Source: a virus (lineage: Duplodnaviria; Heunggongvirae; Uroviricota; Caudoviricetes). Taken from it: a stretch of 5,460 bases of DNA. Below are positions 1-5,460 of this stretch, one piece after another. The notes below the pieces were generated by a model. It did no database searches. It saw only the letters and a program-made list of their open reading frames with translations, and was not told where the DNA came from. The position numbers and the translations under genes are program-made. The DNA is taken from IMG/VR virus record IMGVR_UViG_2531839662_000010, positions 1 through 5,460 of that record. One strand, given 5' to 3'. The stretch's first letter is position 1. The number at the start of each line of letters is the position of its first letter.

Positions 1-600
1 TCTTTACCACTTTCTGTGTTGATTGGTTATGAAAAGAACGCTCGCACACACTCCGTGGAGCAGGTAGATCAGATTGTTGCCAGCATACAGGAGTACGGAT
101 GGACTAATCCGATCCTGATAGACGAGAACAACGTTGTAATTGCTGGTCATGGTCGAATTGCTGCGGCCACTCAGTTGGGGATGGATGACGTTCCCTGCAT
201 TGTTCTGGAAGGGCTAACGGAGAATCAGAAGAAGGCATATCGTCTGGCCGACAACCGTATTCCGCTGAATGCTGGTTGGGATGAAGAGTTGTTAAGCGCG
301 GAACTTGCAGATCTTGCGGCCGATGATTTTGCTCTGGACTCAATTGGTTTTACTCAGCGCGAACTGGATAACTTATTGAGTGCGGCGGTCTACGATGACA
401 CAGAGGGTATGGATATCCCATTTGAGAAGGATGAGGCCAAATCAGGCGTAAAAGTTCAGTACCTGTCATTTGGAGGTCATAAAATCCCGGCAACGGATGA
501 GGAAGCGGATCGTTTTGACTGCGCGGTGTCTCGTTATGTTGATGATAATGGCAGCTATATCGGATTTGTATCCGCATTGCTGGCTGGGGAGGTGTGCTGA
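1..600 (+). CDS. ParB/Srx-fold (ParB N-terminal domain) nuclease-like protein, 5'-partial; frame is open to window start, true start probably just upstream
   Basis: ORF 16..600 has no stop upstream in frame and no SD before GTG16/TTG19. Translation shows ParB-N hallmarks: NARTHS near the N-terminus, GHGR box (nt 145-156), then LADNRIPLNAGWDEELLSAELADL, a pattern typical of phage ParB-like nuclease proteins. Stop TGA 598-600. Confidence 0.75.
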   Translation, partial: SLPLSVLIGYEKNARTHSVEQVDQIVASIQEYGWTNPILIDENNVVIAGHGRIAAATQLGMDDVPCIVLEGLTENQKKAYRLADNRIPLNAGWDEELLSAELADLAADDFALDSIGFTQRELDNLLSAAVYDDTEGMDIPFEKDEAKSGVKVQYLSFGGHKIPATDEEADRFDCAVSRYVDDNGSYIGFVSALLAGEVC

Positions 601-1973
601 TGCTTCACCTGAATTACGACATAACGCACCTACGCGGCGCGGAATATAACCCGCGTTTTATCGGTGAGGATGATCTTGCGAGGCTGGCGGAAAGCGTCAG
701 GGAGCTGGGGCTTGTGAAGCCATTGATAGTGCGCGGCGATTTGCTGGTGGCGGGACACCAAAGGACGAAGGCGCTACGTAAGTTGGGAATAACGCGTGCT
801 GCGGTGTATGTGTTGCCCTGTGAAACGACGGTATACGACGAAGTACGGTTTAACCAACTGCATAACGGAACGGATTTTGATAGCGGAGATGAGCGTTGCA
901 GGGTGTCCGGTCTGGAAGATAAGCATGGTTTTGTTCAGGTATCGGCAAGCCAGATCTCAGGCAATATGCGCGCGAAAATGGCATATGTTCGAAAGAACAT
1001 AGCGGAACTGGTTATCAAGTATGGTCCGTGGGGTGGTTGTGTTGCTACTCAGTCTGGTGAGGTTATTCATTGTGCTCAGTATGCATTAGCAGCGAAGATG
1101 ACGCGCACACCGCTAACGGTGTTTGTGATCCCTGATGTTGAGAAGGAAAAATACCAAAGTTATCTGAATAAAACTTATGGTGTATTTGAGTATTCTCATC
1201 TGGAGAAAACAACATACATCCAGACGTATGCGCAGCTTATGCGGTTGCGTAATGGTGGCAGCCTGAAATCAAATCTGTATGAGTCGTTGATCCTCCCGAT
1301 CATTGCCAAGACGCCAAGAGGAATTGATTTTGGTTCGGGGCAGGGAGACTACGCGCGAATGCTCAGGGCAAAGGGATATAACCTGCATGATCTCGAGCTT
1401 TTCCGCCGTAAGGGCGCTGGAAACACTCTGGATAGGACCGCAACAAACCGGATGATTGATACGCTGGTGGATGACTTAAAAACGCGAGGGCGTTACGACT
1501 ACGTGATTTGCGATAGCGTTTTGAACTCGGTCGATAGTGTCGAGGCTGAATGGTCCGTTCTGACGGTTCTGAAAGGCCTGTGTAAAGCTGGTGGGTCAAT
1601 ATTCTTTTCTGGTCGTAGCCGTGGAGAGCTGGAAACAGTCCTGAAGCAAACACAGGCGGCGAGTTCCAAAAGCCGGCTTTATTTTATTGATCATAACGGT
1701 TTTACCGCGTTGTACCGGAAGGGGCACTGGTTTTACCAGAAGTTTCACTCTGATGAGGAAGTGAAGCAGTTGTGTCGTGTACATGGTTTCAGGATTAAGC
1801 GGTCAATATTCAACTGTAAGAGCTGGTATTTGCACGTCATTAACGATGATTCCCTTAGTTGGGCGAGTCTGGAGAAAGCTGTTCGTTTTGAGTTTGAGTT
1901 GCCGTTGCCTGGTGGTTCAACAATCGGACGATCTGATGATGTGCTGGCGGCTTTCCGGCCGTTGATTAAGTAG
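600..1973 (+). CDS. Fusion protein: N-terminal ParB/Srx-like domain + C-terminal Class I SAM-dependent methyltransferase-like domain
   Basis: ATG at 600 overlaps the upstream TGA (TGATG) with GGAGG at 588-592; the track's GTG 594 has no usable SD spacing. N-terminus YNPRF...VAGHQRTKALRKLG is ParB-like. C-terminal half has Rossmann MTase motif I IDFGSGQGD (nt 1323-1349), motif II YDYVICDSVLN (nt 1494-1526) and motif III-like LKGLCKAGGSIFF. No (D/N/S)PP(Y/F/W) motif seen. Confidence 0.7.
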   Translation: MLHLNYDITHLRGAEYNPRFIGEDDLARLAESVRELGLVKPLIVRGDLLVAGHQRTKALRKLGITRAAVYVLPCETTVYDEVRFNQLHNGTDFDSGDERCRVSGLEDKHGFVQVSASQISGNMRAKMAYVRKNIAELVIKYGPWGGCVATQSGEVIHCAQYALAAKMTRTPLTVFVIPDVEKEKYQSYLNKTYGVFEYSHLEKTTYIQTYAQLMRLRNGGSLKSNLYESLILPIIAKTPRGIDFGSGQGDYARMLRAKGYNLHDLELFRRKGAGNTLDRTATNRMIDTLVDDLKTRGRYDYVICDSVLNSVDSVEAEWSVLTVLKGLCKAGGSIFFSGRSRGELETVLKQTQAASSKSRLYFIDHNGFTALYRKGHWFYQKFHSDEEVKQLCRVHGFRIKRSIFNCKSWYLHVINDDSLSWASLEKAVRFEFELPLPGGSTIGRSDDVLAAFRPLIK

Positions 1974-1989
1974 TCTGTAGGAGGCGCTG

Positions 1990-2328
1990 GTGGCTGACAG
2001 AATTGAGATAAAGATGGATTTTTCTTCTCAGGATATTCAACGACAACTCCAGCGCCTTGAAGAACGCGAATTGCCGTTCGCAATGGCGCTTGCGGCAACC
2101 AGAACGGCAAAGGCTTCTCAGGCTGCGATTAAGAATGAAATTAATCGGGTATTTGACAGGCCCACGCCGTGGATTCAGAACTCTACTTACGTTTTGGCCG
2201 CAAAGAAGAGTGATCCTACAGCCATTGTGTATGCTCGTGAATGGGGAGGAACGCCAGCCCCTGTAACGTTGACTCCGCAAATCGAAGGTGGCCAACGACA
2301 GTACAAACGCTCAGAAGGTGCGTTGTAA
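1990..2328 (+). CDS. Hypothetical protein (112 aa), third gene of the ParB operon; weak, unverified resemblance to small phage morphogenesis proteins
   Basis: GTG start at 1990 preceded by AGGAGG (1979-1984, 5-nt spacer), 16 nt after the upstream stop. Helical Ala/Gln/Arg-rich N-terminus. Stop TAA 2326-2328 sits inside the left arm of a perfect hairpin. Confidence 0.5.
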   Translation: MADRIEIKMDFSSQDIQRQLQRLEERELPFAMALAATRTAKASQAAIKNEINRVFDRPTPWIQNSTYVLAAKKSDPTAIVYAREWGGTPAPVTLTPQIEGGQRQYKRSEGAL

Positions 2329-2380
2329 AACCCACTGAATTCAATGTTTTCCCTTTGTTTTCAGTGGGTTTTGTTATTGG
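2327..2380. terminator. Putative bidirectional intrinsic terminator: perfect 13-bp inverted repeat with 20-nt loop
   Basis: AAAACCCACTGAA (2327-2339) and its exact reverse complement TTCAGTGGGTTTT (2360-2372), followed by T-rich GTTATT. On the opposite strand the stem is also followed by a U-run. Lies between convergent genes. Confidence 0.45.
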
Positions 2381-2411
2381 TGGGGGTTACTGATTACCCT
2401 ATAAAACCCAC

Positions 2412-3403
2412 TTATGTGGATGAAATGTGGATGCCTCCTTTTAACGGATTAAGTGAAATTGCATCCTGGAGGAAATCAGGAGCGAGGTGTGCATAGGTCA
2501 TAGTTTGCTGGATCGTGGCGTGCCCCATAATTCGCTGGAGCGTAAGTATATTTCCTCCATTAATCATAAAGTGAGCTGCAAAGGTATGGCGTAGAACATG
2601 TACTGCCTGCCCTTTTGGTAGATCAGGCTTAACACTGCGAAGCACCTTGCGATATTCCTCATAATTGACGTCAAACAGAAGGCCGGATTTCTTTGTTTTG
2701 ATCTCGCTAACAACTTCATCAGAGACAGGAATAATTCGAACTTTTCCGTTTTTAGTTTTGTTAAACGTCACGCGGTTATTGATGATGTGTTCCGCGCGCA
2801 GATTTTTCGCTTCTCCCCATCTCGCACCAGTACTGAGACAAAGTAGCGTAATCCGCCGGGCATCACCGCTTACTGCATCCAGTAATTTGGCAATTTCTTC
2901 CGTGGTGAGATACGTCATTTCGGGTGATTTTCGTTTCAAAGAGGGGAGGGCGCGGAGCGGATTTTCTCCGTGAAATTCCCCGGCATTTGCCAGGAGTGTA
3001 AACATTCCTCCGAGATCCGACTCATCACGCCGAACAGTAGACTCTTTTACTCCCAAAGATTAAACGGGAGCTTCGATTAAGCGGCCATGAAACGAGCATT
3101 AATCTGGCTAACCCTTGGATCATTCATTTCTTTGATGATTTTTTTCAACCTGGTTAGAACGCCGTTAGCATATGGCTTATTGCGTCCACCCAATTCCCAC
3201 CATAACGGAAGCAGATCTGAGAGATGACGTTGCTCTGTTGGCTTTTCAAGCCATTCCTTATCGTGCATGTGGCTGAGAACATAACGCTCAAAGGCCACTG
3301 CATCTGCCTTTTTCTTAAAAATCCGCTGAATCCGACGTCCACTTCGGCCACGCGGTCTAACATCCACTTTATACCGTCCACCATCGAGTGCTTTAATTGC
3401 CAT
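2412..3403 (-). pseudogene. int: P2-type tyrosine integrase, apparently inactivated (N- and C-terminal halves in different frames, separated by stop codons)
   Basis: N-terminal part (ORF 3077..3436; probable start ATG 3401-3403 with GGAGGG SD, giving MAIKALDGGRYKVD) resembles the P2 Int N-terminus. C-terminal part (2412..3056, starting at a TTG) carries the catalytic motifs ARWGEA, HVLRHTFA and the tyrosine in MTYAHL. Frame 1 stops at 3077-3079 and frame 2 has a stop at 3060-3062; no single indel joins them. Confidence 0.6.
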
Positions 3404-3469
3404 TGGCAAGCCCTCCGGTGAAACGAGGAAAGACATTTCCAGTTTGTAAAACGTAAGAATAATAAAGGG

Positions 3470-3772
3470 TTAACCAATTTTCCTTTCGGATGGGGGTAAA
3501 TCCGTTGGTTCTTGCCCATAGTGTGCGAGAGCCGGAGCTATCTGCCCGGATTCAGGCGCAATTTTTCCAGTCATAAACCACAACGCATATTTCTCAAATC
3601 TGGGGTTGTTTAGTATTTGCTCAATTACTTCAGCATTAGGGATAGTTTTACCGCTTTCATATCTCCACAGAGCATCACGGTTTAAACCAAGCATTTTTGC
3701 TGTATCCGGGAGGCTAGTAAGTCTCTCGCTTTCACGCATGATTTTTATGCGCTCTCCAATAGTCATACGCAT
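3470..3772 (-). CDS. C: P2 C-type immunity repressor
   Basis: About 100 aa from ATG 3770-3772 with GGAG SD (the track starts at a TTG 15 nt further upstream). Contains WFMTGKIAPESGQIAPALAHYGQ, which closely matches the C-terminal half of phage P2 repressor C as recalled. Sits upstream of int on the same strand and divergent from cox. Confidence 0.8.
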   Translation of the reverse strand: MRMTIGERIKIMRESERLTSLPDTAKMLGLNRDALWRYESGKTIPNAEVIEQILNNPRFEKYALWFMTGKIAPESGQIAPALAHYGQEPTDLPPSERKIG

Positions 3773-3867
3773 GTTGCAATTCTCCAACGTCTGTATTAAT
3801 GTTTATACAAATGAGTTTGATTTGGGGCATCCGTCGCAAGAAATACCCCAAACAGGGAGATTATCAC
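3773..3867. promoter_or_regulatory. Divergent promoter/operator region of the immunity switch (Pc leftward, Pe rightward)
   Basis: 95-bp AT-rich spacer between divergent C and cox starts. Contains a 7-bp inverted repeat TTTGGGG (3821-3827) / CCCCAAA (3846-3852) and TATTAAT / TTTATAC -10-like hexamers. Exact -35/-10 boxes could not be assigned by eye. Confidence 0.45.
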
Positions 3868-4194
3868 ATGAATGAAGAACTATTGAGGGCATTGTTTAAG
3901 ATCCCAGACCCCATCACCGTTGATGAGTTTTCCCGCCGCACAGGTAAGACCGAATCAGCCGTAAGAAAGTTGGTAGAGCGTCGACTCATCCCTCTAACTA
4001 CTGAGCGCGAGGTTTTAGGCGAGGAAGGGAGTTCGCGCCGTCTTCTCATCCTTTGGAATGAGTGGCTCGAAATGGTCTATGACGCAACGAGACAGCTTCC
4101 TCCTGAGCGTAAAGATTGGCGCAACCACTGGCTTAAGAAAGCCAAGAAGCTGGCGGAAGATTTGGGATTAGGCTTTCTTAATTTTGCTGCATGA
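3868..4194 (+). CDS. cox: Cox-like excisionase/transcriptional regulator (108 aa)
   Basis: ATG 3868 with GGAG SD (3855-3858). First gene rightward of the repressor, divergent from it. GKTESAVRKLVERRLIPL resembles the P2 Cox DNA-binding region as recalled. The track's upstream start at 3799 would overlap the operator region and was not used. Confidence 0.6.
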   Translation: MNEELLRALFKIPDPITVDEFSRRTGKTESAVRKLVERRLIPLTTEREVLGEEGSSRRLLILWNEWLEMVYDATRQLPPERKDWRNHWLKKAKKLAEDLGLGFLNFAA

Positions 4195-4212
4195 GATGCA
4201 GGGAGTTTTGAT

Positions 4213-4554
4213 ATGAAACAGCAACGTAATTCACGCTTTCGTAATGGTGCTGAACGCCACGCTAACCGTTTCGCTACCAGTGCATCACGCAGCAACATCC
4301 GCTACAGCCTGAGCGAAACACACGCAACGCCGGATGGCTACCCAGTAAAACAAATCGGCGAGCACGCCTGGTTGATTGAGAAAGCTGGAATCGTGGTCCA
4401 CAAATGCCCACACAATCCGTTTACCGGAAACCGCATTTTTGCACTAAGCAGCGGCGACAATCAGTTCGGACAGGATTTCACATTGTACGAAGCACTTCGT
4501 ACAGTTGATCGTCTGCTTCGCGGACAAAGTTTTATTAAACAGGCTGATTTATAA
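4213..4554 (+). CDS. Hypothetical early-operon protein (113 aa) with strongly basic N-terminus
   Basis: ATG 4213 with GGGAG SD (4200-4204), 18 nt after the cox stop. N-terminal 30 residues are Arg/Asn/Ser-rich. Function not recognised. Confidence 0.5.
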   Translation: MKQQRNSRFRNGAERHANRFATSASRSNIRYSLSETHATPDGYPVKQIGEHAWLIEKAGIVVHKCPHNPFTGNRIFALSSGDNQFGQDFTLYEALRTVDRLLRGQSFIKQADL

Positions 4555-4564
4555 CAGGTGCTTT

Positions 4565-4843
4565 ATGACCAAAGAGCATGCACAAGGTGTATTTATCCGT
4601 TTTATTGATTTTCGCGGTGAACTGTTATTACGCGCATCGGCTATTGATGCTGTAGTTCCGGCAGAAAAAGATGTGGCCACTTACCTTTATCTGAACGGCA
4701 CGCGATTGTTTGTGGAACTTCCGTACCAGACCGTACGCGAAATCATTAACGAAGCTGAAAAGGCACGTCAGGTTAATGGCGATGAACCATATATCGAAAT
4801 TATCTGCATGGATTCAGAAGCTGAAATTCAGAAAGCAGATTAA
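4565..4843 (+). CDS. Hypothetical early-operon protein (92 aa)
   Basis: ATG 4565 is 10 nt after the previous stop, with AGGTG upstream. The track's longer version from 4505 would overlap the preceding gene by 50 nt, so the downstream start is preferred. Acidic C-terminus. Confidence 0.5.
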   Translation: MTKEHAQGVFIRFIDFRGELLLRASAIDAVVPAEKDVATYLYLNGTRLFVELPYQTVREIINEAEKARQVNGDEPYIEIICMDSEAEIQKAD

Positions 4844-4854
4844 AGGGCGTTGCG

Positions 4855-5097
4855 ATGGGCAAAGAATATAAAACTCTCATTAACAAAGCACTTGAGCGTT
4901 TTTATTTTCGCTTAAGTGCATCAGGCGTTCATGCTGAACGTGCAGCCCGTGACTCATTGACCAGGGCAATCCGGAGTCTGTATGACGTGGCTTTTTACGC
5001 TGATGATCTGGATGCACTTAACGAACTTTCCGAGCTGATCTGTGCCGCAGAATGCGGGGAACATATTGAACCGTATAAGCTGGGGAATATCGCATGA
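4855..5097 (+). CDS. Hypothetical early-operon protein (80 aa)
   Basis: ATG 4855 is 11 nt after the previous stop, with AAGGG upstream. Predicted helical. Function not recognised. Confidence 0.45.
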   Translation: MGKEYKTLINKALERFYFRLSASGVHAERAARDSLTRAIRSLYDVAFYADDLDALNELSELICAAECGEHIEPYKLGNIA

Positions 5098-5207
5098 GTA
5101 TATTTATCTCATGGCTTGTTCTGATTATTTCGGTGGCCTGTGCCATTGGGATTATGCGAATTATTAATTCAGTAAAAAAGATTGAACGCTTTTTTACTGG
5201 TGAATAA
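5094..5207 (+). CDS. Small hydrophobic peptide (37 aa) with one predicted transmembrane helix; not in the supplied ORF track
   Basis: ATG 5094 overlaps the upstream TGA as ATGA. Translation MSIFISWLVLIISVACAIGIMRIINSVKKIERFFTGE: a roughly 19-residue hydrophobic core followed by a basic tail. Stop TAA 5205-5207. Confidence 0.35.
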   Translation: MSIFISWLVLIISVACAIGIMRIINSVKKIERFFTGE

Positions 5208-5300
5208 CGATACAAATAAAACATCAAATTAAATAAGAAAACGTGAAAACCATCCGTATTAACGGAGGTATTCGCACACGCAAATAACGGAGATACAAAA

Positions 5301-5460
5301 ATGCACGCAAAAGAAGAAGGTATCATCAGAGCACTGAAAGAAATTTCAAAGATGGAAAGCGAAGTAGCGAAAAAAGCCGTGGCCAATGCTCACATGGACG
5401 TCGCAATCCACACAATGATAGCCGCAAAAGTCACGGCAGAAGCTGCCAAAATCATCGAAG
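5301..5460 (+). CDS. Hypothetical protein, 3'-partial (runs off window end), Ala/Lys-rich helical N-terminus
   Basis: ATG 5301 with GGAGA SD (5289-5293, 7-nt spacer) after a 93-bp AT-rich spacer. Open to the window end: MHAKEEGIIRALKEISKMESEVAKKAVANAHMDVAIHTMIAAKVTAEAAKIIE. Confidence 0.5.
   Translation, partial: MHAKEEGIIRALKEISKMESEVAKKAVANAHMDVAIHTMIAAKVTAEAAKIIE

Follow-up and report, generated by a model that had tools for sequence, protein, structure and literature searches.

A 5,460-nucleotide stretch of viral DNA (Caudoviricetes; positions 1 to 5,460 of IMG/VR record IMGVR_UViG_2531839662_000010, hereafter the window) encodes a predicted three-module enzyme in a single open reading frame (ORF) of 457 codons, at 600-1973 on the plus strand. 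In this 457-amino-acid (aa) fusion protein, a ParB/Srx domain bearing a GxxR motif is followed by a degenerate domain of the same fold and by a class I S-adenosylmethionine (SAM) methyltransferase (Methyltransf_23 type) that bears a C-terminal extension peculiar to it. Together with a separate gene for a small ParB protein, the fusion gene forms a fixed two-gene module that heads the packaging operon in tailed phages and prophages from many phyla. We propose, with moderate confidence, that the fusion is a late-expressed and nucleoside triphosphate (NTP)-gated enzyme that, assisted by ParB, would methylate replicated phage DNA before or during packaging.

Domain architecture of the fusion protein

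The fusion is matched end to end by phrog_5475 (E = 2.4e-265; aa 1-457 of 458 profile positions), a family annotated in PHROG as 'unknown function'. Its AlphaFold2 (AF2) model has a pLDDT of 93.8 and a pTM of 0.90, and its architecture is common to more than 777 homologues. A first-pass annotation of the window had described a ParB-like domain joined to a class I Rossmann SAM methyltransferase, and Pfam, PHROG and the AF2 model all bear this out. An MLxLxYDIT N-terminus is common to all homologues and therefore identifies the ATG at 600, and not the GTG at 594, as the start codon; its first base is also the last base of the TGA (598-600) that ends the small-ParB ORF upstream, and the two genes are translationally coupled. 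The protein is basic, with an isoelectric point (pI) of 9.2 and a family median of 8.8. Coordinates of its parts and of the flanking genes are collected in Table 1.

Table 1. Positions in the window of the fusion protein, its domains and motifs, and the adjoining genes.
Feature	Position	Strand	Basis
Stand-alone small ParB/Srx protein, full length 207 aa	1..600	+	phrog_620 (5e-72), ParB_N
Fusion protein, 457 aa: ParB/Srx, degenerate ParB/Srx, class I SAM methyltransferase	600..1973	+	phrog_5475, AF2 model, homologues
ParB/Srx domain 1 (aa 1-98), predicted NTP-binding	600..893	+	ParB_N, phrog_620 and Spo0J matches; secondary structure from AF2 model
GHQR (aa 52-55), Box II / P-motif GxxR	753..764	+	Aligns with Spo0J GERR; family-invariant
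FNQLHNGTD (aa 84-92), invariant stretch	849..875	+	Columns F84, N85, Q86, H88, N89, G90, T91, D92
ParB/Srx-like domain 2 (aa 99-200), degenerate	894..1199	+	Fold similarity
Helical linker / N-terminal methyltransferase cap (aa 201-235)	1200..1304	+	AF2 secondary structure; Q208, A211, Q212, R215, S224, Y227 invariant
Class I Rossmann SAM methyltransferase core (aa 236-384)	1305..1751	+	Motif I, motif II, post-beta4 motif
Motif I, DFGSGQG	1326..1346	+	Methyltransferase core
Motif II, E266	1395..1397	+	Acidic residue following strand 2
Post-beta4 motif, DSVLNS	1512..1529	+	Methyltransferase core
Family-specific C-terminal extension (aa 385-457): one helix, beta-hairpin, two helices	1752..1970	+	AF2; E431, F432 invariant
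5' part (~111 codons) of the 239-aa downstream gene, phrog_1924	1990..2322	+	Cut at junction with P2-like prophage

The ParB_N profile (PF02195) matches aa 7-68 of the fusion with 24.3 bits, slightly below the Pfam cut-off of 26.3. The assignment of domain 1 to ParB is nonetheless secure, because phrog_620 matches the ParB part of the fusion (2.5e-14), a profile of the family matches Spo0J (6sdk; 6e-9), and ParB_N is matched by all 59 aligned relatives (best 9.4e-10). The GxxR motif lies within an AGHQR segment that is invariant in the family (A51, G52, H53, Q54, R55). In the ParB-fold fusions assayed by Kaljevic et al. (2025; PMC12704722), changing the matching GxxR arginine to alanine abolished NTP binding, and ParB-CTPase-fold fusions with a SAM methyltransferase depended on this arginine to bind ATP. 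By analogy with that precedent, domain 1 is predicted to bind NTP. A second invariant stretch, FNQLHNGTD, probably corresponds to ParB Box III, as judged by its position.

Domain 2 resembles solved ParB/Srx structures in a fold search. It lacks GxxR and carries HCAQY at the equivalent place. An hhalign comparison of domain 1 with domain 2 was non-significant (E = 0.097, with only the register right), and a profile of domain 2 found no match among PDB sequences; since neither sequence comparison gave a significant match, it is the fold search that settles the internal ParB duplication. Domain 2 and the helical linker account for the roughly 150 residues that had at first been left unassigned between the two domains. 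The segment following the methyltransferase core, earlier estimated at about 120 residues, comes to about 73 aa once the core is taken to end near aa 384.

The methyltransferase domain is of the Methyltransf_11/12/23/25 type. Methyltransf_23 (PF13489) matches aa 231-398 with 32.7 bits against a curated Pfam cut-off of 27, and likewise matches all 59 relatives. The domain has the Rossmann fold and a motif I of the GxGxG type, and strand 2 is followed by an acidic residue. Across the 59 relatives, at 45-89% identity, the SAM-site residues D243, G245, G247 and E266 are invariant, as is D305-x-V-x-N309-S310 after beta4, and the fusion is predicted to use SAM. The segments singled out in the first-pass annotation lie where it placed them (IDFGSGQGD at 1323-1349, YDYVICDSVLN at 1494-1526), and LKGLCKAGGSIFF was located at 1569-1607. 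This methyltransferase clade is found almost only within this fusion, and the C-terminal extension has no Pfam or PDB match of its own.

Motifs and profiles of the canonical DNA methyltransferases were searched for in the fusion and its relatives. None of [DNS]PP[YFWH], PC[QN] or ENV occurs in the 457-aa fusion, and no DPPY-type tetrapeptide was found among the 59 aligned and 123 locus-encoded relatives; ENV occurs by chance in four relatives, at unrelated positions. The N6_N4_Mtase and DNA_methylase Pfam profiles match none of the 59 members. The N6/N4 amino-methyltransferase families (PF01555, PF02384, PF02086) are represented neither by a motif IV nor by a profile match, and the C5 cytosine DNA methyltransferases (PF00145) neither by a PCQ/ENV pair nor by a profile match. 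The absence of DPPY-type, PCQ and ENV motifs, noted on first inspection, thus holds for the fusion on motif scanning, and searches for an overlooked DPPY/NPPY tetrapeptide and for an N6_N4 or C5 profile match were both negative, relatives included. The sole PADLOC match, 'MTase_II', spans the ParB part only (aa 10-73).

A two-gene module at the head of packaging operons

The window begins 24 nucleotides past the ATG of the small-ParB gene, which is complete at 7977-8600 of a matching locus (L001). The small ParB is an acidic protein (pI 4.3) with an AGHGR motif. Annotated DNA methylases of phages have a ParB part that is homologous to the N-terminal 100-145 aa of the small ParB. We surveyed the linkage of the two genes in 70-79 non-redundant loci, taken from viral contigs, genomes and metagenomes and reaching as low as 32% identity. 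All 58 assessable loci have a separate ParB ORF upstream of the fusion and on its strand, and in 49 of these the two ORFs are immediate neighbours that usually overlap. By our reading of the family counts, the terminase large subunit (TerL) is the product of the first large ORF downstream in 38 of 48 loci, and these terminases are drawn from four different Pfam terminase groups. Hosts include Enterobacterales, Alphaproteobacteria, Bacillota, Bacteroidota, Chloroflexota, Planctomycetota, Myxococcota and others. The fusion may depend on its small ParB partner.

Positions 1-2322 of the window match three Yersinia phages, E. coli phage vB_EcoM-613R2 and E. coli plasmids of about 48 kb at 99.3-99.5% identity. 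Of the 76 matching places, 75 are on plasmids, among them that of strain ATCC 25922, whose 48-kb element, a phage-plasmid, encodes RepA and ParA along with a myovirus tail and a lambda-like head. The gene order in this element is small ParB (207 aa), fusion (457 aa), phrog_1924 protein (239 aa), a second small ParB (196 aa), terminase small subunit (TerS; phrog_57), TerL of the GpA type and portal. Positions 21388-22041, 31946-32533 and 34517-38397 of this plasmid (L086) between them hold three ParB/Srx genes ahead of TerS/TerL, an MT-A70 methyltransferase gene, and the ParA gene, an orphan that lies 13 kb off and has no adjoining ParB.

The arrangement recurs in distant phages. In Bacteroides phage BS-TP3 (36% identity), ParB, fusion, TerS and TerL follow one another in that order. 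E. coli phage 473R12 encodes a small ParB of 59% identity, next to it a TET-associated glycosyltransferase (PF20691, 1.1e-34), and after that TerS/TerL; this glycosyltransferase or N6/N4 methylases occupy the same slot in related phages. Lying between a ParB gene and TerL, the fusion gene fits the ParB-terminase (ParB-Tls) locus by position. Two earlier papers describe that locus as rich in DNA methylases, frequently joined to ParB, with the prediction that these enzymes modify DNA as it is packaged (PMC6536676; PMC4738411). By positional analogy, the enzyme in the slot here may modify DNA as well.

Several further genes were seen beside the module. In 20 of 38 non-redundant loci, a gene for a protein of about 143 aa follows the fusion directly (e.g., L006:2178-2609). 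This protein carries the motifs F[RK]YFWxK..GF..HCA[RK]CL, YxCGV..PYxW..NxH and [TS]CRN[FW]QF, has no Pfam, PHROG or PADLOC match, and may be a third component of the module. Its place is taken in the window's phage by the 239-aa phrog_1924 protein (locus L002:2659-3375). The PHROG label of the latter, 'minor tail protein', looks doubtful, because the gene lies between ParB genes ahead of TerS and far from the tail genes. An Amidoligase_2 protein and a GGACT (gamma-glutamyl cyclotransferase-like) protein adjoin the module in a Bradyrhizobium prophage (L003/L004 11054-17196) and in a marine viral contig (L009 9381-10973); such genes were seen in two of four early contexts and did not recur in the wider neighbour survey.

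Candidate substrates of the methyltransferase

In the mechanism that we favour, the small ParB would activate or target the fusion late in infection. Its own ParB domain, by binding NTP and probably packing against the degenerate second copy, would gate the enzyme, and the methyltransferase domain would transfer methyl groups from SAM to replicated phage DNA, either ahead of packaging or in the course of it, through an active site unrelated to those of the DPPY amino-methylases and the PCQ/ENV C5-methylases. It is the genomic position, with the small ParB upstream, TerS/TerL downstream and DNA modifiers in the same slot, that points to DNA as the substrate. The basic pI of the fusion and the near confinement of its methyltransferase clade to this architecture also count in favour. 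A role for the small ParB as an accessory factor has a precedent, in that a phage DNA thymine dioxygenase requires its cognate small ParB, a protein lacking a DNA-binding domain, as activator on double-stranded DNA (PMC13229309).

Several observations weigh against methylation of DNA. The nearest structures of the methyltransferase domain are small-molecule and tRNA methyltransferases, with no DNA methylase among them, and no recognisable DNA-binding domain, target-recognition domain or helix-turn-helix (HTH) was found in the fusion. The ATCC 25922 phage-plasmid encodes a 195-aa MT-A70 methyltransferase 2.6 kb upstream of the module. The fusions of PMC12704722, which provide the NTP-binding precedent, are likened to the present protein by Pfam architecture and may not be full-length homologues of it. 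Finally, the nanopore methylome of ATCC 25922 contains only GATC, CCWGG, RTACN4GTG and GGTCTC/GAGACC, all assigned to other genes (PMC12679398). This methylome is a weak test, because a late gene may be silent in lysogens and basecaller models report known marks only. The first-pass annotation had suggested from the fold that the substrate could be something other than the canonical DNA adenine; its fold class stands, but the fold does not fix the substrate, and the position of the gene speaks for DNA.

A bolder form of the DNA methylation hypothesis is that the fusion represents an unrecognised class of DNA methyltransferase, one without canonical motifs, with an NTP-gated tandem ParB and a separate ParB activator, that would, during packaging, place a non-canonical methyl mark on phage DNA or spread methylation without sequence recognition. 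We advance this only tentatively.

Methylation of a protein appears unlikely. Here the substrate would be TerS, TerL, the portal, the small ParB or a host protein, and the ParB domains would serve as an NTP-controlled interaction module. Many protein methyltransferases belong to this fold class. Weak profile matches to Rickettsia PKMT2 (7e-4; 0.0022), the presence of METTL9 and CypM among the structural neighbours, the lack of a DNA-binding domain and the constant location of the gene beside packaging proteins are in keeping with such an activity. However, the terminases belong to unrelated Pfam groups, so that beyond the small ParB there is no conserved candidate substrate, and the slot otherwise houses DNA modifiers.

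We also consider it improbable that the fusion acts on a nucleotide or other small molecule, with ParB holding an NTP or related nucleotide that the methyltransferase methylates, or with SAM simply being consumed (anti-defence, SAM depletion). The nearest structures (UbiG, toxoflavin N-methyltransferase, GNMT, NNMT and AzeJ) are small-molecule enzymes, ParB-fold fusions bind ATP, CTP or GTP (PMC12704722), and the high pTM suggests a compact three-module assembly. Set against these points, the head of a late packaging operon ill suits roles in host metabolism or anti-defence, which are usually early; the protein is basic; and no metabolic genes are recurrently linked to it.

An RNA or tRNA methyltransferase acting on phage or host RNA is very unlikely. 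The best structural matches include Trm9, METTL6 and a tRNA mo5U34 methyltransferase (4p7c), but these are no better than the matches to many small-molecule enzymes. A tRNA gene lies 3 kb upstream in the E. coli element, but outside the conserved module, and an RNA-binding domain was not found. We give equally little credence to a non-catalytic SAM- or S-adenosylhomocysteine-binding module that regulates the ParB switch or a partner according to SAM level. Residues D305, N309, S310, R339, D364, W377, F378, Q380 and H383, which follow beta4 or lie on the C-terminal strands, are invariant beyond the SAM site and therefore fit a conserved substrate pocket better than a sensor.

Two further candidates were rejected. 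A DNA hypermodification intermediate, suggested as a substrate in the first-pass annotation, is disfavoured because no precursor pathway is linked to the module: the 48-kb element lacks genes of the TET/JBP, DpdA/QueC, thymidylate-synthase-like and kinase types, and 150 upstream neighbours in 70 non-redundant loci are confined to genes of lysis and replication plus a few DNA methylases of ordinary type, with no recurrent pathway among them. A role in plasmid partition was set aside as well, the module being equally conserved in integrated prophages without ParA; no ParA adjoins it in any locus examined, that of the ATCC 25922 element being the distant one described above, and the fusion has neither the HTH nor the C-terminal dimerisation domain of a partition ParB (Pfam shows ParB_N and methyltransferase only).

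Were replicated phage DNA the substrate, the fusion would extend the known DNA methyltransferases by one catalytic family and would be a second case, after the ParB-dependent thymine dioxygenases, of a phage ParB serving as cofactor of a DNA modifier. Such a mark could go unnoticed by standard motif callers and could bear on how phages resist restriction. Were the substrate instead a protein or a nucleotide, the ParB NTP switch would have a new job at the packaging step.

The remainder of the window and comparison with known systems

The window joins two mobile elements. Positions 1-2322 belong to the phage-plasmid of about 48 kb, and 2305-5460 to the integrase end of a P2-like (P88-like) prophage that adjoins pheL/pheA in E. 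coli chromosomes. The 18-nucleotide overlap of the two at 2305-2322 may be an att core, that is, the P2-like phage may have integrated into the 239-aa gene of the phage-plasmid. The junction was found in none of the complete E. coli genomes and could also be an assembly chimera. The P2-like integrase is split into two frames on the minus strand (2412-3436; N-terminal part 3077-3436, C-terminal part 2412-3056), its intact homologue measuring 329 aa; the split reflects either a frameshifted pseudogene or a sequencing error.

The fusion itself is already known as an object. RefSeq names it 'methyltransferase domain-containing / ParB N-terminal domain-containing protein' (WP_001443071.1 in the ATCC 25922 plasmid), it constitutes PHROG 5475, and its architecture is named in PMC12704722, where ParB-CTPase+Methyltransf_23 is among the fusions listed as enriched in phages and where examples from bacteria and from phages were purified. 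Those proteins share with ours the PF02195 + PF13489 architecture and the enrichment in phages and prophages. The study describes neither a second, degenerate ParB domain nor an obligate small-ParB partner; it gives no substrate and calls the domain a predicted DNA methyltransferase.

The phage ParB-N6/N4 fusions (PF01555; Paracoccus prophages, B. cereus Bce_0392) likewise combine ParB with a SAM methyltransferase just upstream of terminase genes, and their ParB part is homologous to the small ParB partner described here. The present fusion differs from them in its catalytic family, with no (D/N/S)PP(Y/F/W) and no PF01555, in having two ParB-fold domains and in its separate ParB gene. That last feature is shared by 5mYOX176 and ParB176 (O'Toole et al., PNAS 2026, PMC13229309), where a small ParB without a DNA-binding domain is co-encoded in a terminase-linked cluster and is needed for activity on double-stranded DNA; 5mYOX176 is an Fe(II)/2-oxoglutarate dioxygenase and, unlike the methyltransferase here, is not itself fused to ParB.

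Among class I methyltransferases of solved structure (UbiG 4kdr, 3sm3, 3h2b, toxoflavin N-methyltransferase 5ufm, Trm9 5cm2, METTL6 8p7b), identity to the fusion is only 11-20%. The fusion has LNS in place of LxH after beta4, its own C-terminal extension and a clade nearly confined to this architecture. With the CTP-gated clamps Spo0J, KorB and Noc it shares the N-terminal fold and the GxxR P-motif, and it differs from them in having no HTH, no C-terminal dimerisation domain and no adjoining ParA. To the existing record of this family, our analysis adds a second ParB-fold domain, an invariable small-ParB partner, the restriction of the methyltransferase clade to this architecture and a third gene that recurs in about half of the loci.

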